Below the pieces are notes generated by a model, which was not told the DNA's origin, searched no databases, and saw nothing but the letters and a program-made list of their open reading frames with translations. The translations under genes and the position numbers were made by a program. Shown piece by piece: positions 2,863 to 40,214 of a stretch of DNA of 64,000 nucleotides. Source of the DNA: a bacterium UBP6_UBA1209 (GTDB taxonomy: Bacteria; UBP6; UBA1177); assembly GCA_002309575.1 (NCBI GenBank), contig DBXP01000004.1, positions 4,077 to 68,076 on the forward strand, written 5' to 3'. Numbering within the stretch: the first letter of the stretch is position 1; the number at the start of each line of letters is the position of its first letter.

Positions 2863-3389
2863 CAGGCGGAAGCGGCTGCGTCATTTGGTTTACCGGGCTT
2901 TCGGGGGCCGGCAAAAGCACGCTGGCAGAGGCTCTCGGCGGGTATATCCGTTCTCGTGGAGAGAAAGTCGAGCTGCTTGACGGGGACATTGTCCGGAAGG
3001 TCTTCCCGCAGACGGGTTTCTCGAAAAAGGAGCGCGACGAGCACATCCGGCGCATGGGTTACCTGGCTTCGATACTCGAGCGGAACGGTGTTTTCGTGAT
3101 AGCGTCGTTTATTTCGCCGTACCGTGAATCGCGGGATTTTGTCCGCGGTCTTTGCAAAAATTTTGTCGAGGTTTACGTCTCGACTTCGCTTGCTGAGTGC
3201 GAAAAACGCGATGTCAAGGGGCTTTACAGGCGTGCAAGGGCAGGTGAGATCAGCTCGTTTACCGGGATCGACGATCCTTACGAGGTCCCGCCGAGTCCTG
3301 AAATCACGATCGACACAGCCGGCGAGAGTGTTGAAGAATCATTGGAAAGTCTAGTCAACAAGTTGAAATCATTAAATATTTTGGAGTAA
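2859..3389 (+). CDS. cysC: adenylylsulfate (APS) kinase
   Basis: P-loop GLSGAGKST. Conserved LDGDIVR...GFSKKERDEHIRR...ISPYRESR...FTGIDDPYE. Start overlaps cdaR stop (ATGA). Confidence 0.9.
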   Translation: MTGGSGCVIWFTGLSGAGKSTLAEALGGYIRSRGEKVELLDGDIVRKVFPQTGFSKKERDEHIRRMGYLASILERNGVFVIASFISPYRESRDFVRGLCKNFVEVYVSTSLAECEKRDVKGLYRRARAGEISSFTGIDDPYEVPPSPEITIDTAGESVEESLESLVNKLKSLNILE

Positions 3390-3395
3390 ATTCAA

Positions 3396-4691
3396 ATGCT
3401 TTTCAAAAACATAGATATTCTTGACGAGAATTTTGAGATCCAAAAGGATGTTTTTGTCGGCGTTTCAGGCGACAGGATCAAATATATCGGCAAAACCAGG
3501 CCTTCGGAGGATTTCGGCGATGAATACGACGGCAGGAACAGGCTGCTGATGAGCGGATTCTACAACACTCACGCACACACGGCGATGACGCTTCTTCGCG
3601 GCTACGGCGAGAACATGACCCTGCAGGACTGGCTTTTCACGAGGATCTTCCCGTTCGAGGCTCATCTTACACCGGAATCCGTCTACTGGGGAACGCTTCT
3701 TTCGATGGCGGAATCGATGCGTTTCGGTATCGTTTCGAGTTCGGATATGTACTACTTCACGGATGAGATCGTCAGGGCGGTCGTTGAGTCCGGCGAAAAG
3801 ATCAATGTCACACGCGCTGTCGCTATTCCCGACAACGAGCCGTGGAAGTTCCCGGCGATCCGCGAGATGAAGGAAGCGTTCGAGCGTTACAACGGCTATG
3901 CGGACGGAGCTGTCAAGGTCGATATGTCGATCCATGCCGAATACACCTGCAGCGACGCGACGGTCCGGACTGTTACCGAATACACGAAATCGGTCAACGC
4001 GATCATGCACATCCATATTTCCGAGACGCGCTCGGAGCACGAGGGCTGCAAGGAGCGTCACGGCGGGCTCACGCCGGTGCAGTACTTCAACAAAATGGGA
4101 AGCTGGGATACTCCGTCGATCGCGGCGCACTGCATCTACATCGAGGGCGAGGATTACGATATCCTTAAGGAAAAGGGCGTAACGGTCGCTTCGAATCCGA
4201 ACTCGAACCTGAAGCTCAGCTCAGGTGTATGCAACGTTCCCGAGCTTTTAAGGCGCGGCATCAGAGTTGCGATCGGGACCGATTCCGTCGCTTCAAACAA
4301 CAGCCTCAACTTTTTCGAGGAGATGAAGGCCTTTGCGCTGACCGGCAAGATGATGTTCAGCGATCCGACTGTCGTAACGCCGAAGGAGACGCTTTATGCG
4401 GCGACACGGGCCGGGGCTCTGGCGCAGGGCAGGACCGACTGCGGTCTTCTGAAGGAGGGCTTCAAGGCGGACCTGATCGTTGTGGACACTCACAAGCCGA
4501 ATATGGTCCCCGTCCACGACATGCGCAACAACCTCGTATATTCGGCTGACGGCGGCGATATCCTGATGACGATGGTCGACGGCAAAGTTATTTACGAAAA
4601 CGGAGAATACAGGACGATCGATATTGACAAGGTGATTTTTGAGGCACAAAATTGTACCGATGAGATATTGAAAAAGCTTAAGCAGGTTTAA
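3396..4691 (+). CDS. amidohydrolase, MTA/SAH deaminase (MtaD)-like chlorohydrolase family
   Basis: Metal-binding signature YNTHAHTAMTLLRG...DWL and amidohydrolase fold length (431 aa). HIHISE and GTDS motifs present. Confidence 0.8.
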   Translation: MLFKNIDILDENFEIQKDVFVGVSGDRIKYIGKTRPSEDFGDEYDGRNRLLMSGFYNTHAHTAMTLLRGYGENMTLQDWLFTRIFPFEAHLTPESVYWGTLLSMAESMRFGIVSSSDMYYFTDEIVRAVVESGEKINVTRAVAIPDNEPWKFPAIREMKEAFERYNGYADGAVKVDMSIHAEYTCSDATVRTVTEYTKSVNAIMHIHISETRSEHEGCKERHGGLTPVQYFNKMGSWDTPSIAAHCIYIEGEDYDILKEKGVTVASNPNSNLKLSSGVCNVPELLRRGIRVAIGTDSVASNNSLNFFEEMKAFALTGKMMFSDPTVVTPKETLYAATRAGALAQGRTDCGLLKEGFKADLIVVDTHKPNMVPVHDMRNNLVYSADGGDILMTMVDGKVIYENGEYRTIDIDKVIFEAQNCTDEILKKLKQV

Positions 4692-5957: not shown

Positions 5958-6482
5958 ATGAAAAAATTTTTTCTCATACTTCTCTTGTCTGCCGCCTTTA
6001 TGCTTCTGTCTTGCGGCGGAAGCGAACCGGCGGCGGACGTCCCCGAGTGCGGTGAGGATCTGTCGTTCCCGTGCGCCGATCCGGCAAGCGGTCTTGTCTG
6101 GTCGGAAAAGGCACATCTCCAGAAAAACTGGGACGAAGCTTTGTTTTACTGCGAAAATCTTGAAGAAGGCGGCATAAAAGACTGGCGCCAGCCGAATATC
6201 GACGAGCTCAGGACTTTGATCCAGGAGTGCTACGGCACTGTCAGCGGCGGAGAATGCCGTGTGAGCGAAAACAGCAACTGCCTCTCCTATGATTTATGCT
6301 GGTCGACATTCTGTTACTGCGAATTCGATGATAGCGGAAAATACAACAAATTCGGGGACGCTGGCGGCTTCTGGTCCTCTTCCGCAGCAAGCTACGAAGG
6401 CGCCTGGTATGTCAATTTCCTTGAAGCAAAAGTGGTTGACGACGACAAGGGCAGTTCTTATATAGTCCGCTGCGTGAAGTGA
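5958..6482 (+). CDS. DUF1566 (Lcl C-terminal / Fib_succ_major-like) lipoprotein
   Basis: Lipoprotein signal MKKFFLILLLSAAFMLLSCGG. DUF1566 signature IKDWRQPNIDELRTLI and GGFWSSS...YIVRCVK. ATG directly abuts the TAA of the upstream gene. Confidence 0.8.
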   Translation: MKKFFLILLLSAAFMLLSCGGSEPAADVPECGEDLSFPCADPASGLVWSEKAHLQKNWDEALFYCENLEEGGIKDWRQPNIDELRTLIQECYGTVSGGECRVSENSNCLSYDLCWSTFCYCEFDDSGKYNKFGDAGGFWSSSAASYEGAWYVNFLEAKVVDDDKGSSYIVRCVK

Positions 6483-6508
6483 TCTAAGATCCGGGATCCG
6501 GAGTCTGT

Positions 6509-9490
6509 TTAATATTCCTTTTTCGTCAGTTTCTCGTACATTCTGAAAAGCTCGGCAACGATCTCAGCTTCGCTCATTTTCGGATCAAAACCGTAAGCCG
6601 CCATAACAGCCTTGTCGTTCTCTTTGTGGGCTTGAAGAAGTTCAGGAAACAAATATGCCTTGTCGCCGTATAGTTGAGCAAGAGAACAATCGGCATACTT
6701 TGCCCGTGCATCCAAAATACTTTGTGCTGTCGCTTCAATTTTTGTTTTTTGTTTTTCTGTCGGATTACACCAAGGGAAAGTGTTATAAACATTGTTTACA
6801 GTATAACTATAATCACTTTTGAGACGGCAACAGATAGCCCTCATCCAAGCGTTATGAACATTTGAAGTCAAGATTCCAAAATGATAAAGAGTTCCATTCG
6901 GTAATATTCTTACTTTATCGCTACAAATTACAGATTCATCAAGATAGCCGATTGGAATATAGACTCTGCGTTCTGATGAGACCTGCGGAATAACGATAAA
7001 TTTGCCATTCGGAAAATTTTTAACATGAAACTTTGTTGGTTTTTCGGCTAATTTTATGGTTTGCGCACTTTTGCTTGCAAGTCGATATTTGCGCACAGCC
7101 TCAACACGCTTTAAACATTCGGGCAACTTGAATAGTTCCGACGGCTTGCAGTCGCCAAGATAGAGGATATAACGAAATTTGTTGTTTATAAATTCCTCGG
7201 AACCGATATAGCAGTGAAAATATTTTTTTGCTTGAGGCTCTTTTTTCAGAAATTCGTCTTTTTCTTCCTGCGTAAAGATATAGTTTCCGCCGTCAATCGG
7301 CTTGTTTCCTATTCCAACCTCCGGTACATTGCAGAGCGGTTTTTTCACACTTTCAACAAAAATATTAGGCGCATCCAAAAGATAACCGTTTATATTTTCG
7401 ACTTCTTTGAAAGTTTTATCTGCATTGTAAATTCGTTTTGTTTTATATTCTGCTCCGTCAGAAAACCCCACAATCACACAGTGAACATGGGCTTTTTCGG
7501 TTGATTCTGAATCCCATTTAAAAGTACTCCATGCAAAATCAATATGAAAACCTTCATTGAAAAGCATTTTCCATAAAATAGCCGTTTGTTCACCCTGCGT
7601 TATTGAGTTTGTTGAAACAAATGCGCATTTTGTGTTAGTGCCTTTTATCAATTCTGACGCTCGCTTATACCACGCAGAAACATAATCAAGGTTTCCCCTT
7701 CCGCGAAGTCCATTAAAAACATATTCCATATCTAATTTTTGCTGGCTGCCAGCTTCCATCCAGCGCGCTCCCACAAACGGTGGGTTACCCATGATGTAGT
7801 CGTAATGGTTTTTAGTCTTTTTTTGTTGCGTCTTTCCGATATTTATTTCTTCAGTTATGAGGTTTATCGTTTCGTATTTTTCTTCGCGCTCATGCACCTC
7901 CGCTGGATAAATCAGATTGGTCCTTTTTGCCGTTATCGTAGGAATATTTTCTTCCTCTTGCAGATATCGCCAGTCCATTCTGAGCGCATTTCCTTCAACA
8001 ATCGTCGCGCTTGTCGAAAGCGGCAGGAAATCGAGGTCTTCGTCAACAATCTTCTCGGTTTCCTTCATCATTTGCGATTCGGCGATCCAAAGAGCTGTTT
8101 TAGCGACAGTTACCGCAAAATCATTGATTTCTATGCCGTAAAACTGCGAGATTTTCACTTTTATCGGGGATCCGCCGTGACCGACAAACGTCTGAGTCCC
8201 GTACTGTGTCTTGTAGATGTTTTTCAGGATTTCGTTTTCCAGCCGCCGGAGCGAAATATATGTTTCAGTCAGGAAATTGCCGCTTCCGCAGGCAGGGTCA
8301 AGGAACGTCAGTGATGCAATTTTATTGCGCAGCTGCTCTAGACGGGAACGTTGTTTTGATGATATTCCGTTCACTTCGATCTTGCTCAGTGACCGGTACA
8401 GGCGGTTGCCAAGCGTAGTCGAAATACCGCAGATCTCATAAAATTCTTTTATCAAACTATCCAGAAACAGCGGATCGATCACTTTATGGATATTCTCGAC
8501 ACTCGTGTAGTGCATCCCGCCTTTTCTGCGTGTCTCAGGATTCAAAGTCGATTCAAAAACAGCGCCGAAAATCGTGGGCGAAATTTCCGACCAATCGAAG
8601 GGAGCGCAGTGATTTACGATGATATTTAGAATTTCATCACTAAAATTGGGAACTTCTATGTCTTCAGCCGCGAAAAGTCCACCGTTCACGTAGGGAAATG
8701 CCTTTAATTTCAGGTCATATTTGTCGCGGTTTTCCGGTTTTGTGTCCAATGCCTTGAAAAGATTGATGATTCCAAGTCTTAGATCAGTCAGATTAAACGA
8801 TTTTATATAGTCTTCAAAGCTTGTCCGTGTCTCAAAAAGCCCGGCATCCTCGGCATAAAGGCAGAAAACGATGCGGACACACAAAATATTCAGGCTTCTA
8901 AAGCTGTTTTCATCGGGATTTATGTACTCCTTGATGAGCGCGTCATAAAGCTTTCCTACAAGTTCGCCCGCTTTCAATGATACCTGTTCTTCAGGTGAAA
9001 CAGAGGTCTTTTGGGTGTCTGTCAAAAACTGCAAGCAGTCGAATTTATTCGGTAAATCCTCAAGCAGGAGCTGAACCGGCTCGTCATGCGGCTTTTCCAT
9101 GTCGTAAATCAGGAACTCCTGAAAGTTGCAGACGACGATCCAGTTCGGACGCAGCGAATTTGGCATTTCATCGGCATAACGTTTTGCCTGCCGGTAGGGG
9201 GTGAGCATAGCTCCGTCAGATTGTTTCGCCTCTTTCCGAAGATCGACATCTGAGCTTTTCTGCTCGATCAGAACCTTGGTTTCAGGAATATATGCATCAA
9301 TAAAACTCGTGTGCCTGAGTTGGACCTTCTTCTCAAATTCAATGTGTTCCGCAGGATTTTCCATTCCGAGAATTTTTCCAAGAAGATCTATCCAGAAACG
9401 TGCGGTTTCCTGCCTCTCGTCACCTCTATTTTTCCAGAAATCTGCGAATTCCTTAGTCACTTTTTTGCGGTTTACCGATGCTTTTGCCAA
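6509..9490 (-). CDS. MmeI-family Type IIL (IIG) restriction-modification enzyme (single-chain endonuclease + N6-adenine methyltransferase + target recognition)
   Basis: MmeI-like N-terminal PD-(D/E)xK region: FWIDLLGKILGM...IDAYIPETKVLIEQKS...NWIVVCNFQEFLIYDM. MTase motif I DPACGSGNFL and motif IV MGNPPFVG. 993 aa. AT-rich relative to flanks. Confidence 0.85.
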   Translation of the reverse strand: MAKASVNRKKVTKEFADFWKNRGDERQETARFWIDLLGKILGMENPAEHIEFEKKVQLRHTSFIDAYIPETKVLIEQKSSDVDLRKEAKQSDGAMLTPYRQAKRYADEMPNSLRPNWIVVCNFQEFLIYDMEKPHDEPVQLLLEDLPNKFDCLQFLTDTQKTSVSPEEQVSLKAGELVGKLYDALIKEYINPDENSFRSLNILCVRIVFCLYAEDAGLFETRTSFEDYIKSFNLTDLRLGIINLFKALDTKPENRDKYDLKLKAFPYVNGGLFAAEDIEVPNFSDEILNIIVNHCAPFDWSEISPTIFGAVFESTLNPETRRKGGMHYTSVENIHKVIDPLFLDSLIKEFYEICGISTTLGNRLYRSLSKIEVNGISSKQRSRLEQLRNKIASLTFLDPACGSGNFLTETYISLRRLENEILKNIYKTQYGTQTFVGHGGSPIKVKISQFYGIEINDFAVTVAKTALWIAESQMMKETEKIVDEDLDFLPLSTSATIVEGNALRMDWRYLQEEENIPTITAKRTNLIYPAEVHEREEKYETINLITEEINIGKTQQKKTKNHYDYIMGNPPFVGARWMEAGSQQKLDMEYVFNGLRGRGNLDYVSAWYKRASELIKGTNTKCAFVSTNSITQGEQTAILWKMLFNEGFHIDFAWSTFKWDSESTEKAHVHCVIVGFSDGAEYKTKRIYNADKTFKEVENINGYLLDAPNIFVESVKKPLCNVPEVGIGNKPIDGGNYIFTQEEKDEFLKKEPQAKKYFHCYIGSEEFINNKFRYILYLGDCKPSELFKLPECLKRVEAVRKYRLASKSAQTIKLAEKPTKFHVKNFPNGKFIVIPQVSSERRVYIPIGYLDESVICSDKVRILPNGTLYHFGILTSNVHNAWMRAICCRLKSDYSYTVNNVYNTFPWCNPTEKQKTKIEATAQSILDARAKYADCSLAQLYGDKAYLFPELLQAHKENDKAVMAAYGFDPKMSEAEIVAELFRMYEKLTKKEY

Positions 9491-34416: not shown

Positions 34417-35637
34417 ATGGGCATTCAGGCGGAAAAGAGAGATGTGGTCAGGCAGGCTGAGATCGGTGTTATCGGTGTAGGCGGCTGCGGCGGGAACGCA
34501 GTCGGAATGATGAGCAAAAAACGCAAGGAAGACGGGGACGAATCTGTATTGAGGACAACGCGGATCATAGCCGCGAATACGGATCTGCAGGCGCTTGACG
34601 ACGATGAGATCAAGCTCTGCGACAGCATTATCCAGCTCGGGCCGAATTTGACTCACGGCCAAGGTTCAGGCGGTCGTCCCGACACAGGAAAGGGTGCTGC
34701 CGAGGAGAGTCTTGTCAGCATCGCCGAAAAGATCAAGGGGCTCGACATGCTCTTTATCACAGCCGGAATGGGCGGCGGGACAGGTACCGGAGCATCGCCG
34801 ATCATCGCCAAAAACGCCAAAGAAAACGGCTGTTTGACAGTTGCTGTCGTTACCACTCCCTCCAAATACGAAGGCAAGAGGAAGATGCGTCTTGCAAACG
34901 AAGGCATCGAAAACCTCAAAAAATATGTGGATTCTCTGATCATTATCTCGAACGATACGCTTTTTGACTACGCCGGCGACGAGGAGTCTTCCGACATGTT
35001 CAAAAGAAGCAACGAGGTCCTTATCGATTCCGTTGAAAATATAACGACGCTCATAGCGAAACGCGGTGTTATGAATATCGACTTCGCCGATGTCAAAAAC
35101 ATCATGTCAGGCATAGGCTTGACCCTGATTGTGAGCGGACACGCCGAAGGCTCTGCCCGTCAGGCGGTCGAGGACGCCCTCAATTCCCAGCTTCTGGAGG
35201 GCTACACGATCAAGGGCTCGTCGCGTGCGATCATCTACTTCTCCGGAAACATCCCGGGCAGGGATCTCAAGGATGCGTGCGAATATTTCCTGCAGGAGAT
35301 AGGCAACGACGACCTTGAATATAAGCAGGGGCTTTGTCCTACTTCCGACAGTATGATCACGGTTTTCATCATTGCCGCGGCGACCAGAGTCGACAATGAG
35401 CTCAAAAGCTTTCTTCCCGAAGTAAACGAAAAGGTGCAGAGCGACATAACATCGTTTGCCGATGTTCCGCCGATACCGATGATCGGTCCCGAGGTAAAAC
35501 ATCTCTCTCAGCCGATTGCAAATATTCAGGCGACAAGTGTTCCGATATCCAAAAATTCACGTAAAGTCAGCATCGAAGAGTTCGATATCTTTGATATTGT
35601 CGAATCTACGGCAGAAAAGGTCGAGATCAAGAAGTAA
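34417..35637 (+). CDS. ftsZ: cell division protein FtsZ
   Basis: Tubulin signature GVGGCGGNAV and GGGTGTGASPIIA. Confidence 0.95.
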   Translation: MGIQAEKRDVVRQAEIGVIGVGGCGGNAVGMMSKKRKEDGDESVLRTTRIIAANTDLQALDDDEIKLCDSIIQLGPNLTHGQGSGGRPDTGKGAAEESLVSIAEKIKGLDMLFITAGMGGGTGTGASPIIAKNAKENGCLTVAVVTTPSKYEGKRKMRLANEGIENLKKYVDSLIIISNDTLFDYAGDEESSDMFKRSNEVLIDSVENITTLIAKRGVMNIDFADVKNIMSGIGLTLIVSGHAEGSARQAVEDALNSQLLEGYTIKGSSRAIIYFSGNIPGRDLKDACEYFLQEIGNDDLEYKQGLCPTSDSMITVFIIAAATRVDNELKSFLPEVNEKVQSDITSFADVPPIPMIGPEVKHLSQPIANIQATSVPISKNSRKVSIEEFDIFDIVESTAEKVEIKK

Positions 35638-35648
35638 CCTTCATTTTT

Positions 35649-35678
35649 CCTCAAAATTTCGGATATCTCCTTTTGAGG
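35649..35678 (+). terminator. hairpin 12 nt after ftsZ stop (8-bp stem CCTCAAAA/TTTTGAGG, 14-nt loop); weak terminator candidate
   Basis: Perfect inverted repeat 35649-35656 / 35671-35678 followed by an A/T-rich tract. No strong U-run. Confidence 0.3.
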
Positions 35679-35707
35679 AATAATCTTAAAATATTGGTTT
35701 AAACATG

Positions 35708-35741
35708 CCTTGTTTTCAAGCGTTTTTCTGCTATAATTCTC
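35708..35741 (+). promoter_or_regulatory. sigma70-like promoter copy 1 (TTGTTT-16nt-TATAAT), 34/34 nt identical to copy at 37429
   Basis: -35 TTGTTT at 35710-35715 and -10 TATAAT at 35732-35737. Exact 34-nt duplicate of 37429-37462. About 40 nt upstream of the MNT gene. Confidence 0.5.
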
Positions 35742-35777
35742 AGGTTTTTGCGTTTTATGACTTAAAAAGAGGTCGTC

Positions 35778-36080
35778 ATGGCAAAAGAAATAATGAGTGT
35801 TCAGGAAATAATGTCAAAAGTAAAACCTTTGGCTGACAGATACAAAATCAAGGAAGTTTATCTTTTCGGCTCTTATGCCAGGGACGAAGCCGATTCCGAG
35901 AGTGACATCGACCTGTTAGTATACGGCGGGGAAGGGTTCAAACTGACGAGAGTTTTCGCGTTCGCCGAAGAGTTACGCGAACTTCTTGACAAAAAAGTCG
36001 ATGTCTTTGAAATTCACGAGATCAATGAAGGCAGCGATTTTTACAAAAACATTATGAAGGACAGGATTCTTGTGGCATGA
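35778..36080 (+). CDS. nucleotidyltransferase (MNT/MntA-type) antitoxin
   Basis: Minimal NTase motif LFGSYARDEADSESDIDLLV. 100 aa. Confidence 0.85.
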   Translation: MAKEIMSVQEIMSKVKPLADRYKIKEVYLFGSYARDEADSESDIDLLVYGGEGFKLTRVFAFAEELRELLDKKVDVFEIHEINEGSDFYKNIMKDRILVA

Positions 36081-36412
36081 AGTATTCTGACAAACAACGC
36101 CTGCAGAAAATATATGAGTATGCAACCAGACTCTGCGACTGCATAAAAGAGAAAAACATCACGAAAGAAAGCCTTTTGAATGACTATTCGTTGCAATGGC
36201 TCGTAACCACGCCGCTTTACAACATCGGCGAGCATGTCTACTATCTCTCGTCAGAATTCAAAAAACAGCATTCGGATATCGAGTGGAATCTGATCGCTGG
36301 ACTCAGGCACAGACTTGTGCATGATTACGACGGTACGAACTGGAGTCTAATCAGTGATGTCGTGTTTGAGGAAATTCCCGCGTTGATCGAAAAATTGAAA
36401 AATCTGGTTTAG
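36077..36412 (+). CDS. HEPN/DUF86 (HepT-type) toxin
   Basis: R-x4-HxY HEPN motif RHRLVHDY. 111 aa. Overlaps the MNT stop (ATGA). Confidence 0.85.
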   Translation: MKYSDKQRLQKIYEYATRLCDCIKEKNITKESLLNDYSLQWLVTTPLYNIGEHVYYLSSEFKKQHSDIEWNLIAGLRHRLVHDYDGTNWSLISDVVFEEIPALIEKLKNLV

Positions 36413-36445: not shown

Positions 36446-36470
36446 GTTCATTCCAACGGGGGACAAAATG
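36446..36470 (+). promoter_or_regulatory. conserved translation-initiation leader copy 1 (GTTCATTCCAACGGGGGACAAAATG)
   Basis: 23/25 nt identical to 37829-37853. Includes the SD (GGGGGA) and the ATG of the Sel1-repeat gene. Confidence 0.4.
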
Positions 36471-37343
36471 AAAAAAATTGTGATTTTTGTTGTTGTTTTG
36501 CTTGCGATGACATCGGTTTTCGCTCAGATGCCTGAAACAGACCAAGAGGCTTGCGAATATGCCAGAAACAACGACAATGCCAAGAACTGGCTTGAATATA
36601 TAGGCAAATTTCCAAAAGGAACGTGCCTTGCCGAAGCTCAATACAGTCTCGGTCTTATTTATCAACAAGGAAACGGAGTTCCTCAAGACTCTGCGGAAGC
36701 CTTTAAATGGTATAAGAAATCAGCAGAACTCGGCAACATTCATGCCCAGAACAATTTGGGACGTATGTATTTCAACGGAGAAAGTGTCCCACAAAACTCT
36801 GAAGAAGCCTTCAAGTGGTACAAGAAAGCAGCCGAACAAGGAAACACTCAATCCCAATATAATCTCGGAGTTATGTATGTTAATGGTCAGGGAATTCCCA
36901 AGAACTTTGATGAAGCAATAAAATGTTTTTTTAACGCAGCGGAAAGTGGTTTAGCTGCGGCACAAAACGAGATAGGAATCATGTACTACTTCGGTGAAGG
37001 TGTTAAACAGGACTATCAAACAGCTGTGAAATGGCTTAAACTGGCAGCAGAACAAGGTTATGCTCCGGCTCAATTCAATTTTGGACGTATGACTTTTAGC
37101 GGGGAAGGAATCCAGCAAAACTACGCAGAAGGTATAAAATGGATAACTAAATCGGCTGAACAAGGTTATATGAAAGCTCAAATCACTTTAGGAGCTATAT
37201 ATACTGACGGAAAAGTAGTCCGGCAGAATCTTGCGGAGGCAAAAAAGTGGTTCAAATATGCTGCTGACCAGGGTTCAGACAAGGCAAAATCCTATCTTAT
37301 GAAAATTGAAGCTGCGGAAAAAGCGGCAGAGAAAAATAAATAA
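36468..37343 (+). CDS. Sel1-like repeat (SLR/TPR-like) secreted protein
   Basis: Signal peptide MKKIVIFVVVLLAMTSVFAQ. At least 7 Sel1 repeats (AQYSLGLIYQQGNGVPQD.AEAFKWYKKSAEQG...). Confidence 0.85.
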   Translation: MKKIVIFVVVLLAMTSVFAQMPETDQEACEYARNNDNAKNWLEYIGKFPKGTCLAEAQYSLGLIYQQGNGVPQDSAEAFKWYKKSAELGNIHAQNNLGRMYFNGESVPQNSEEAFKWYKKAAEQGNTQSQYNLGVMYVNGQGIPKNFDEAIKCFFNAAESGLAAAQNEIGIMYYFGEGVKQDYQTAVKWLKLAAEQGYAPAQFNFGRMTFSGEGIQQNYAEGIKWITKSAEQGYMKAQITLGAIYTDGKVVRQNLAEAKKWFKYAADQGSDKAKSYLMKIEAAEKAAEKNK

Positions 37344-37428: not shown

Positions 37429-37462
37429 CCTTGTTTTCAAGCGTTTTTCTGCTATAATTCTC
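37429..37462 (+). promoter_or_regulatory. sigma70-like promoter copy 2 (identical 34-nt duplicate of 35708-35741)
   Basis: -35 TTGTTT at 37431-37436 and -10 TATAAT at 37453-37458. Followed by GGGAGG SD and the small ORF. Confidence 0.5.
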
Positions 37463-37490
37463 GGGTTTTTTGATGGGAGGAGATATTAGC

Positions 37491-37721
37491 ATGATGCGAA
37501 AAGAATTCTGTGAAAAAGACGGGATATTGATTACTTATACCGATAACGATGTCTGCTTCGAGGAATGCAGCACGGCAAAAGCTGTATTGCTGGGAAACGA
37601 CGGAACAGTAATTCATTCAAATTTTGATCCCGAAAAGAACGATTTTTTCAAGGAATATCTCAAAAAGATTTATCCGGCAATCACGACATTCCGCTCGCTT
37701 GATTCTCTGGAGAGTGCATAA
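37491..37721 (+). CDS. hypothetical small protein (76 aa; no recognisable domain)
   Basis: ATG 37491 lies 10 nt after GGGAGG (37475-37480). Cys-containing (CEKDG...CFEEC). Stop TAA overlaps the next ATG (TAATG). The listed ORF begins at TTG 37470. Confidence 0.45.
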   Translation: MMRKEFCEKDGILITYTDNDVCFEECSTAKAVLLGNDGTVIHSNFDPEKNDFFKEYLKKIYPAITTFRSLDSLESA

Positions 37722-37798
37722 TGCCTGAATTCGAATTTGTGAATTTCTGGAAAGATTTCCACGGCGGTGAAGTCCGCTTCAAGGATAAGGAAAACTGA
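37721..37798 (+). CDS. hypothetical micro-protein (25 aa) translationally coupled to upstream small ORF
   Basis: TAATG overlap with the preceding ORF. Peptide MPEFEFVNFWKDFHGGEVRFKDKEN. Confidence 0.35.
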   Translation: MPEFEFVNFWKDFHGGEVRFKDKEN

Positions 37799-37828: not shown

Positions 37829-37853
37829 GTTCATTTCAACGGAGGACAAAATG
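37829..37853 (+). promoter_or_regulatory. conserved translation-initiation leader copy 2 (GTTCATTTCAACGGAGGACAAAATG)
   Basis: 23/25 nt identical to 36446-36470. Includes the SD and the ATG of the lipoprotein gene. Confidence 0.4.
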
Positions 37854-39419
37854 CAGAGAAATTCAATAATTATGCTGTTTCTTGCATTGTTTTTCCTTGT
37901 CTCCTGTTCCTCCTCGCATTCTTCCTCAGATTCCGATGCGGTGCCAGACTCAGATTCGGACAATTCTGGAACTGCTGATGCCGATGTTTCGGAAGACTCG
38001 GATCCTGTTGATGATTCCGACAAAACACCGGATGCAGATTCTGATGCGGACAACGATTCCGATACGCCGGAAACTGTTGAATGTCTTGATCTGCGCTACA
38101 ACGAAAACACGATCAAAACACCTTTCCCGTTCAAAGATGCCAACGGCAAACCGACTTTCTGCCGCCCAGGCTGCGACACGCCGACAGAAAACGATCCGCA
38201 GTGTGTCCGCAACATCTGGGATTGGGAGAACTGGGAAGTGTATCAGCGTTACCTCGAAGCACAGGATAAAGACCAAAACCAGACAACGGAACGTGCCTGT
38301 TATCCGTGGCCCTGTGTTTTGCCGGATATGCACGCACAAACAAAAGCTGAACTCAGCACATTTGTCAGCAGTTGCGATCGCTTACTTACTGTGAATGGTT
38401 TTTCTGTCACAATGGGAACAGTGTGGTCAAATGGTATGTATGACGGAGTTGTCGGAATTCAATTTCAGCACCATGGCAGCATGATAGTTGAATATGATCC
38501 CGAAAGAGATGAATACATGACTTTGGGTCAAAACAGAGCTTTATCATTCAACGAAGGTCGTTATGTTGTGGAGGTTTATGACAGGATTCCCGGAGATTAT
38601 CCAAACGACTACAAAGTTTTTACAGTTTCTGTGTTGCGGACAGAAAAAGGTTATTTCTATGAACTGATTCGTAATAATTATGAACACAGAGATAAATTTT
38701 CCGATCCGCCGTTTGCTGGAAAGAACTGGGCTTTGCTGCGTCTGACCGGAGGAAAAACGGTTTATGCTTCTTCCAAAGATTGGGAATGGCATGAGATCGG
38801 CGGGATCAACAACTACGCCGGAGAAGGCAACATTGTCGGAGACCACCTGACATTCATCACGAACAACCGCGAGCTTTATTACTGCGACCTGCGTAAATAC
38901 CCGAAGCATATTGATGAATGTTTCAAACTCAACCGCAAGTATGAAGACGGCTATGAAGAGCTTGGTCACAGCCCCAGGATCGACTTGGAAAACGAATACC
39001 GCGTTGTTTACAATGTTTACGGAACACCGACATTTGTTGAGGTTGACTTGAAGGATTTGAGTGACCCCCAATACACAGAATACAAAGTTGAAAAAAGCAG
39101 ACCGCAAGCCGCTTTATTCGGACCCAGCATGTTGATTGGAAACAGGGTGGTTTATATCGAATCTGATCCAAACGACGACATCGGCTGTTTTTACCGTTTT
39201 GACAAGCAGAAAACATACTGCCAAAAAGAAAAAACTTTTTCGACAGATCCGTCTGATCTGATGGGCTACAATGTTTTCTGGGGAAAGTGGCATCTTTGGA
39301 AACGCATAACTCGGCCGACAGCCATAATCAGAGATTTAGAGTGTTACTGCAATGAAACCGGAATTTGTCCTTTGGAACCTGCGACGGAAGAGGAGCTCAA
39401 TCGCAATACGACGAAATGA
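37851..39419 (+). CDS. hypothetical lipoprotein with D/S-rich acidic linker and Cys-rich globular C-terminal region
   Basis: Start MQRNSIIMLFLALFFLVSC (lipobox LVSC). SDSD-rich low-complexity region. No recognisable domain. Shares a 5-prime leader with the Sel1 gene. Confidence 0.75.
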   Translation: MQRNSIIMLFLALFFLVSCSSSHSSSDSDAVPDSDSDNSGTADADVSEDSDPVDDSDKTPDADSDADNDSDTPETVECLDLRYNENTIKTPFPFKDANGKPTFCRPGCDTPTENDPQCVRNIWDWENWEVYQRYLEAQDKDQNQTTERACYPWPCVLPDMHAQTKAELSTFVSSCDRLLTVNGFSVTMGTVWSNGMYDGVVGIQFQHHGSMIVEYDPERDEYMTLGQNRALSFNEGRYVVEVYDRIPGDYPNDYKVFTVSVLRTEKGYFYELIRNNYEHRDKFSDPPFAGKNWALLRLTGGKTVYASSKDWEWHEIGGINNYAGEGNIVGDHLTFITNNRELYYCDLRKYPKHIDECFKLNRKYEDGYEELGHSPRIDLENEYRVVYNVYGTPTFVEVDLKDLSDPQYTEYKVEKSRPQAALFGPSMLIGNRVVYIESDPNDDIGCFYRFDKQKTYCQKEKTFSTDPSDLMGYNVFWGKWHLWKRITRPTAIIRDLECYCNETGICPLEPATEEELNRNTTK

Positions 39420-39446
39420 CTTCGACCTTTGACAGGGGAGTCCCTC

Positions 39447-40214
39447 TTATTTCTTCGATTTTTTGTTGTACTTTTTGAGGAACTCCTCGGCGAGTTCCAT
39501 ATATTTTTTTGAGCCGATGGAGGAGATGTCGTAAAGAGAAATCGGTTGCCCGAAGCTCGGTGATTCGCTGAGCTTGACGTTTCTCGGAATTACGGTTTTG
39601 AAGACCAGGTCGCCGAAGTGCTCGCGGACGTCGTTTTCGACTTCAAATGTGAGTTTCAGGCGCTTGTCGTACATCGTGAGCAGAATCCCGTAAATCTTTA
39701 TGTTTTCGTTAAATTCCTGAATGGCTTCAAGTGTTTCCAGGATTCTTGAAAGTCCTTCGAGAGCGAAGTATTCGCACTGGATCGGAATCAGGACGCCGTC
39801 ACAGGCAACCATGTTGTTGACTGTCAGAATGTTGAGCGAAGGCGGTGAATCGATGATTATGTAGTCGAATTTGTCCTTGACTTTTGCGAGCGTCTCCTTC
39901 AGCACGAATTCGCGGTTTTCGACATCAAGAAGCTCGATTTCGGCTCCGGTGAGGTCGGAATTGCAGGGGATCACCTTCAAAAACGGCAGTTCGGTGTTGT
40001 AAATCGCCGTTACGTCGGATGACGCCATCATGTCGTAAATGGTTTTGAAGGATTTCTCCTTGATCGAGCTCATCGAGGTCGCGTTTCCCTGCGGATCCAT
40101 GTCGATAAGCAGGGTCTTTTTCTCGAAAATGCTGAGCGAAGCAGCAAAATTTACGGCGGTCGTTGTCTTGCCTACACCGCCCTTCTGGTTTATGACCGAA
40201 ATGATTTTTCCCAT
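39447..40214 (-). CDS. parA: ParA/Soj-family ATPase (no adjacent parB)
   Basis: Deviant Walker A KGGVGKTT. 255 aa. Last gene of the purD-engB operon; the next gene is convergent. Confidence 0.9.
   Translation of the reverse strand: MGKIISVINQKGGVGKTTTAVNFAASLSIFEKKTLLIDMDPQGNATSMSSIKEKSFKTIYDMMASSDVTAIYNTELPFLKVIPCNSDLTGAEIELLDVENREFVLKETLAKVKDKFDYIIIDSPPSLNILTVNNMVACDGVLIPIQCEYFALEGLSRILETLEAIQEFNENIKIYGILLTMYDKRLKLTFEVENDVREHFGDLVFKTVIPRNVKLSESPSFGQPISLYDISSIGSKKYMELAEEFLKKYNKKSKK

Follow-up and report, generated by a model that had tools for sequence, protein, structure and literature searches.

The two overlapping reading frames at positions 37470 to 37798 of the window, by which we mean the whole 64,000-nt stretch of DNA analysed here, are best explained as a decayed copy of a two-gene module in which a small protein, A, precedes a DUF4160 protein, B, with B acting as a toxin and A as its neutralising partner. 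To this reading, taken as a whole, we assign a probability of about 65%. It builds on the origin of the 25-aa ORF, on the conservation of A, on the strict linkage of A to B and on the asymmetric decay of the pair. The derivation of the 25-aa ORF from a DUF4160 gene by deletion is nearly certain, and the division of roles, with B as the toxin and A as the antitoxin, appears reasonably probable from the patterns of linkage and loss among the sequences compared. The ancestral module would have consisted of A (75-76 aa) and B (91-94 aa, DUF4160/PF13711) joined by a TAATG overlap, and its intact form is the one carried by many Treponema, UBP6-like and Selenomonas-like genomes. In the window, B has lost codons 5-73 by an in-frame deletion, leaving a putative toxin pseudogene and an orphan A; A would have served as the neutralising partner (an antitoxin or an immunity-like protein) of toxin B, and lineages would repeatedly lose the toxin and retain A as an orphan.

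The original prediction described an ORF of 76 or 83 aa and an ORF of 25 aa that overlap by one nucleotide, and both were recovered, on the forward strand, exactly where it had placed them. Gene A extends over 37491..37721 (76 aa from an ATG; 83 aa, 37470..37721, if translation starts at a TTG), and the 25-aa ORF, here called B' (MPEFEFVNFWKDFHGGEVRFKDKEN), over 37721..37798, the TAA stop of A (37719-37721) and the ATG of B' (37721-37723) having one base in common (TAATG). A Shine-Dalgarno sequence of gene A, GGGAGGAG, read from the sequence at 37475..37482, precedes the ATG at 37491 by 8 nt and is itself preceded by the TTG at 37470. From its position, and from the length of the homologues (75-76 aa), we conclude that the ATG of the 76-aa form is the real start. 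The ribosome-binding site of the second gene, GGAG within CTGGAGAGTGCATAATG (window 37706-37723), is located 8 nt upstream of the B' ATG and is encoded by the last codons of gene A itself (..LESA), and translational coupling may account for part of the extreme conservation of LDSLE(S/T)A at the C-terminus of A. The same C-terminus is also kept in loci from which B is gone.

The ancestry of the 25-aa ORF is evident from the relatives of the window, in which A is followed by a full-length B gene of 91-94 aa that overlaps the A stop with the same TAATG. Full-length B stands at this position in many loci, L010 and L013-L016 among them; it measures 94 aa in L010 (for example MPEFLRAAGFKIYFWSNEKNEPIHFHITQGNPTENDTKIWVLSSGSFQLAHNKGRISEKDLSRIFSAMQIYYFEFVNFWKDFHGGEVRFKDKEN) and in L013-L015, and an 88-aa version is present in L009. 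Full-length B proteins match PF13711 (DUF4160) with 44.6, 39.8 and 47.2 bits (cut-off 23; E 1.7e-11 to 5e-10), and NCBI names the homologues of B 'DUF4160 domain-containing protein'. Aligned with the 94-aa B, the B' of the window reads as MPEF followed by EFVNFWKDFHGGEVRFKDKEN, that is, residues 1-4 joined to the last 21, with codons 1-4 and 74-94 retained and codons 5-73 deleted in frame. The DNA alignment shows one clean gap, of 207 nt relative to L010 and L013 and of 189 nt relative to L009, with the deletion junction between 37732 and 37733. The AF2 model of B (pLDDT 89) comprises five strands in residues 3-51 and two helices in residues 58-83; the deleted segment holds all five strands and the HFH motif, the residues of the invariant core (Y13, W15, E21 and H24-F25-H26) are all missing from B', and what is retained is just the tail of the last helix. 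Judged from this model, B' cannot adopt the DUF4160 fold, and the remnant of a pseudogene is its most fitting description. The 25-aa ORF of the window has no Pfam match, PF13711 included, and by its alignment it is a fragment of a DUF4160 member and no member itself.

Gene A is intact in the window and under strong purifying selection. A search with A fused to the 25-aa ORF returned homologues of A in 275 clusters at 90% identity, with E values down to 1e-43; among the 120 A-homologue clusters listed, nearly all are 75-76 aa long and 71-100% identical, and all homologues listed share the C-terminus ...LDSLE(S/T)A. That the 76- and 25-aa ORFs are halves of one protein split by a frameshift, a possibility raised with the original prediction, was rejected, as the fused query never matched beyond 75% coverage and the homologues listed end with this same C-terminus. 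Overall, the dN/dS of A is about 0.12; it is 0.03 for the window compared with L009 and 0.01-0.04 within the UBP6-like group of loci, in which the B genes broke independently, a constraint that is not datable to the time after the loss of B because the loss events are themselves undatable. An exhaustive profile search with A gave 69 representatives at 50% clustering, a small and compact family, and no link to any known superfamily. No match to A was obtained in Pfam, either with the single sequence or with 57 members at E values up to 10, nor in PADLOC, NCBIfam, PDB sequence profiles or Foldseek-PDB. The AF2 model of A (pLDDT 91) shows five strands followed by a long C-terminal helix; the protein is folded compactly, and neither a recognisable DNA-binding domain nor a disordered tail for toxin binding is present. 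Residues C7, C22 and H42 are invariant. A CCCH metal site was also considered and is weakened by C26, at which several lineages have S, I, T, V or Q instead.

Carriers of A include many rumen, gut and oral Treponema among the species-representative genomes, for example the cultured T. parvum ATCC 700773 (L043) and Treponema sp. OMZ 840, HNW and C6A8. The gene also occurs in MAGs labelled "bacterium" or UBP6, to which the closest relative of the window, L009 (UBA1196; 99% protein identity), belongs, and, at about 50% identity, in Selenomonas and Veillonellaceae MAGs. The proteins of the UBP6-like clade and of Treponema are 84% identical. A few further matches lie on contigs binned as Paratractidigestivibacter, Bacteroidaceae and Lachnospiraceae. 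The spread across phyla, noted for L009-L016, L046, L047, L069-L073 and L077, points to horizontal transfer of A, to mis-binning or to both, as far as sequence comparison can tell. A was absent from the viral contigs, phage records and plasmids of IMG/VR, INPHARED and PLSDB.

The linkage of A and B was followed in 69 species-representative loci, which were chosen for the presence of A, a bias that a B-anchored scan of metagenome contigs corrects in part. Both genes are intact in 37 of the 69 loci, A is intact with B inactivated or absent in 23, both are damaged in four (L062, L068, L074 and L077), and five are cut by a contig end and not assessable. Those four are the only loci in which A is damaged, and B is dead in every one of them. 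The lesions of B are many and independent, and they take several forms: (i) in-frame deletions, leaving 25 aa in the window, 26 aa in L028 and 10 aa in L032; (ii) a local frameshift in L009, whose 88-aa product has the second strand replaced; (iii) out-of-frame deletions in L011, L012, L017, L019, L020, L037, L042, L048, L061 and L063; (iv) nonsense mutations or truncations in L021, L058 and L065; and (v) complete absence in L026, L030, L051, L054 and L073. Within the clade of the window, B is broken in a different way in each of four genomes (the window itself, L009, L011 and L012) and intact in L010 and L013-L015. The strong conservation of A extends to loci that have no trace of B left (L005-L008, L026 and L030). 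The B-anchored scan, which took loci with a B at least 58% identical and with enough upstream DNA, found A directly upstream of B in 55 of 55 loci, and A comes before B in every locus. The cluster counts, 275 for A and 106 for B, are in line with the asymmetric decay. The pair stands alone amid unrelated housekeeping genes, its context differs from lineage to lineage, and identical A proteins occur in different neighbourhoods. One Treponema MAG, SRR11784291_bin.56, carries both an orphan A (L030) and an A with an intact 91-aa B (L031), a coexistence that would fit an orphan A acting in trans.

The strict dependence of B on A, together with the decay of B alone and with the part that DUF4160 plays as the toxin of the DhiTA system described below, makes a toxin B and a neutralising A the most likely reading. 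The order A-B is the canonical, antitoxin-first one, and the module presents the generic features of toxin-antitoxin (TA) systems of type II, namely two small co-directional genes with a stop/start overlap and a promoter-like element upstream, in the window and its relatives, strict co-occurrence of toxin and antitoxin (55/55) and decay that strikes the toxin first (23 species). Several points speak against it. A is compact and well folded, unlike classical type II antitoxins, it stays conserved where B has vanished, and the losses of B are undatable, all of which counts against a simple antitoxin role; against the TA reading itself stands the sole validated DUF4160 system, with its other gene order and other partner family. 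A pure antitoxin is expected to turn neutral once its toxin is lost. Since A is conserved where no trace of B remains, it may have a function of its own, be it a role independent of B or one as an anti-addiction or immunity gene.

Carried further, this line of thought makes A a protein with its own cellular role, for instance as a regulator or as a redox or metal factor acting via C7, C22 and H42, and B an accessory or selfish DUF4160 nuclease-like rider, which we consider unlikely. Such a role would account for the retention of A whenever B is lost, and it would agree with the intact and highly conserved A of the 23 loci without a functional B, some of them without any trace of it, with the larger number of clusters at 90% identity (275, versus 106 for B), with a compact fold that has an invariant Cys, Cys and His and no antitoxin-like domain, and with the strong-looking promoter that A has to itself. 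However, B was never met without A in the 55 loci, which argues for a dependence of B on A as opposed to hitch-hiking; the patchy distribution, variable context and cross-phylum occurrence (84% identity between UBP6-like clade and Treponema) give A the look of a mobile accessory gene and not of a housekeeping one; the family is small, with its 69 representatives at 50% clustering; and the lack of conservation of C26 makes a metal site less plausible.

Orphan antitoxins and toxin pseudogenes occur in degenerating chromosomal type II TA loci, and a module of toxin B and neutralising A resembles these loci in that its putative toxin has been inactivated repeatedly and independently with the upstream partner left intact, and in that damage to this partner is confined to loci whose toxin is dead already. 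It differs in that we infer the roles of A and B, and in that A is unusually constrained and devoid of the DNA-binding domain of type II antitoxins.

The closest characterised system is DhiTA of Dickeya dadantii 3937, a validated type II TA system composed of the DUF4160 toxin DhiT and the DUF2442 antitoxin DhiA, with the toxin gene first and the antitoxin gene second (PMC8198452); DUF4160 is also reported as an effector domain of Menshen NsnC proteins, where it is usually followed by DUF2442 (PMC12065111). Full-length B belongs to the same Pfam family as DhiT (PF13711), and both systems are stand-alone modules of two small, co-directional, overlapping genes. In contrast to DhiTA, the order is reversed, with the partner A first and DUF4160 second, and the DUF4160 gene of the window is cut down to a 25-aa remnant. 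DUF2442 was not matched by the A family (57 members, E up to 10), in the intact loci examined nothing resembling a DUF2442 ORF lay downstream of B, and against the DhiT equivalog NF048015 B reached 15.3 bits (cut-off 100), over residues 1-31 only. A would represent a new, non-DUF2442 partner of DUF4160.

A different protein of 91 aa, A', lies directly upstream of more distant DUF4160 genes, which are at most 53% identical; these pairs were found on Clostridia-type metagenome contigs and on four viral contigs (L130-L137, L140-L149, L151-L153, L155-L159 and L161). The consensus of A' is MxYEFAKYPDxT...FERP...GFD...ELPSY...GGLKxA, and its family comprises 2709 clusters at 90% identity and is unannotated. 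No Pfam domain scored above threshold in A', and sub-threshold matches to PF13711 in two of six A' proteins (E 0.03-0.07) are a lead only. The A'-DUF4160 pairs resemble A-B in having a small upstream protein with a beta-rich N-terminus and a helical C-terminus ending in ...GG(L/I)xxA, but A' is longer, far commoner and present on viral contigs, where A is not found. The models of A and B display the same order of elements, five strands and then a C-terminal helical region, and the motifs VCFED of A and VHFER of A' sit at the position of IHFH in B, so that A and A' may, on these models, share the architecture of the toxin, five strands and a C-terminal helix. Homology of A, A' and B obtained no significant hhalign support: for A and A' the probability was 33% when the profile was shallow and 1% when it was deeper, and for A or A' compared with B it was 0.2% or less. 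It is a tentative and rather improbable idea that A, possibly along with A', forms an unannotated class of upstream neutralising partners of DUF4160, derived as dead toxin paralogues and acting through mixed complexes, with orphan A genes selected as anti-addiction or immunity genes. If true, orphan A would be kept as a defence against incoming DUF4160 modules and would be no decaying leftover.

A genuine micropeptide, encoded by the 25-aa ORF and selected to work with the 76-aa protein, would correspond to the peptide gene of the original prediction. The ATG, the GGAG 8 nt upstream of it and the TAATG overlap are all retained, so the remnant may still be translated, its Shine-Dalgarno sequence lying inside the 3' end of A and its coupling to A being preserved; the deletion is in frame, and short in-frame remnants occur in two more lineages (26 aa in L028 and 10 aa in L032). 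Against this, the 25-aa form is found in the window only: the version of L009, where A is 99% identical, runs to 88 aa, and those of L010 and L013-L015 run to 94 aa. The L028 remnant consists of residues 1-21 plus the last 5 and that of L032 of residues 1-5 plus the last 5, parts other than those kept in B', and no common piece survives; as the short in-frame remnants retain different segments, no mini-peptide is being preserved. Random deletions leave the frame intact in about a third of cases, which is matched by the roughly 4 in-frame lesions among about 16 recognisable ones. The piece retained in the window is moreover just the end of the DUF4160 C-terminal helix. Taken together, these points make a selected micropeptide very improbable, and the claim of a 25-aa peptide gene gives way to a remnant left by a deletion of 207 or 189 nt (relative to L010/L013 and L009, respectively), no 25-aa peptide being conserved. 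That both ORFs are chance or annotation noise in the intergenic region that separates the Sel1 and lipoprotein genes, a caveat of the original prediction suggested by their shortness and their lack of Pfam matches, can be dismissed, since A has its 275 clusters with E values down to 1e-43, purifying selection and a confident AF2 fold, and since the 25-aa ORF, which in isolation would not exceed chance expectation and is made non-random by its ancestry, matches the two ends of a PF13711 gene codon by codon.

The decayed A-B module shares its setting with a neighbouring TA pair on the same strand, which was correctly named MNT/HEPN in the original prediction and is here called MNT/HepT: the MNT gene (35778-36080) matches PF18765/PF01909 and the HepT gene (36077-36412) PF01934. 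Both are two-gene modules of toxin-antitoxin type, and A-B' occupies the same slot, behind a near-identical promoter-like element and ahead of a similar ribosome-binding junction; a Pfam search of A and B' found neither a nucleotidyltransferase (PF01909/PF18765) nor a HEPN/HepT (PF01934) match. What stands of the proposed TA-like module is a coupled gene pair unrelated to MNT/HepT, with a conserved and unannotated 76-aa first protein; its second partner proved to be the remnant of a 91-94-aa DUF4160 protein. The description of the module as new holds for its A half, which is without annotation, and fails for its toxin half, which belongs to the known DUF4160/DhiT family.

The common promoter and common downstream organisation claimed for the two pairs were both borne out. 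The promoter-like element of the A-B module (37429..37470, forward strand) is identical at 41 of 42 positions to a second copy, outside the module, before MNT/HepT (35708..35749, forward strand). It contains a perfect extended -10 consensus, TGCTATAAT, at 37450-37458 and a weak -35-like TTGTTT at 37431-37436 that matches the consensus at 3 of 6 positions, and its 29-nt core is present in exactly 2 copies in the 64 kb, versus 0 expected. As the same core precedes gene A in L009-L015, the element is native to the A-B module. A simple sigma-70 scan did not call the 42-nt repeat as a promoter, because its -35 matches at just those 3 of 6 positions, and its promoter function is put forward from the perfect extended -10 and the consensus only. 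A search of the region in Rfam (E up to 0.1) returned no RNA element.

Downstream, the junction and ribosome-binding region at 37829..37860 (forward strand) is 84% identical over 32 nt to 36446-36477, each of the two immediately preceding the ATG of a secreted-protein or lipoprotein gene, and the 37829-37860 sequence is also found in L009. The gene that follows B' (37851..39419, forward strand) encodes an Asp-rich lipoprotein with the lipobox LVSC, its ORF and N-terminal signal being read off the DNA, and it gave no match in a Pfam search. A terminator-like site is located downstream of this gene (39434-39447), with none between the gene and B', and the lipoprotein gene is probably co-transcribed with A-B'. 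It is outside the module in most relatives, and follows A-B in L009 only, where nucleotide identity to the window falls from 96% across the promoter and gene A to 75.6% across the adjoining lipoprotein gene (window 37851-39419 versus L009 4526-6079); this gene would either evolve fast or be exchanged by recombination.

Several further observations concern the neighbourhood. A segment just upstream of the MNT/HepT promoter copy (window 35673-35720) is 92% identical over 49 nt to L009 6069-6117, which consists of the 3' end of the lipoprotein gene, the spacer downstream of it and the initial 13 nt of the promoter element, broken off in L009 after CCTTGTTTTCAAG. This arrangement suggests that units of promoter, TA pair and lipoprotein gene may be duplicated or recombined as cassettes. 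In the window, both TA-type modules, together with the secreted-protein genes that belong to them, are situated between what we take, from reading the translations only, to be ftsZ, at the end of a cell-division cluster (34417-35637, forward strand), and presumably, on the same grounds, a ParA-like ATPase gene (39447-40214, reverse strand). The A-B-lipoprotein unit of L009 is not beside ftsZ; its flanks hold a tyrosine recombinase (Phage_integrase) and two ORF6N-domain genes (339-1271, 2910-3920 and 6264-6584), which suggests a mobile or prophage-like neighbourhood.

To conclude, the annotation of the locus should be corrected, the 25-aa "peptide" becoming a DUF4160 pseudogene remnant and the 76-aa gene an orphan partner. 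The unannotated partner family and the reversed gene order are new, the toxin family is known, and no new principle is involved. Annotators gain two new candidate antitoxin families, A and A', and the cultured T. parvum ATCC 700773, which carries an intact A-B pair, offers a tractable test case. Toxins or effectors with a DUF4160 domain are widespread, and a single partner family, DUF2442, has been validated for them; among spirochaetes of the rumen, gut and mouth, and in other anaerobes, one whole branch of DUF4160 genes pairs with an unannotated 75-aa protein in the opposite order, and more distant branches pair with another unannotated partner, of 91 aa.
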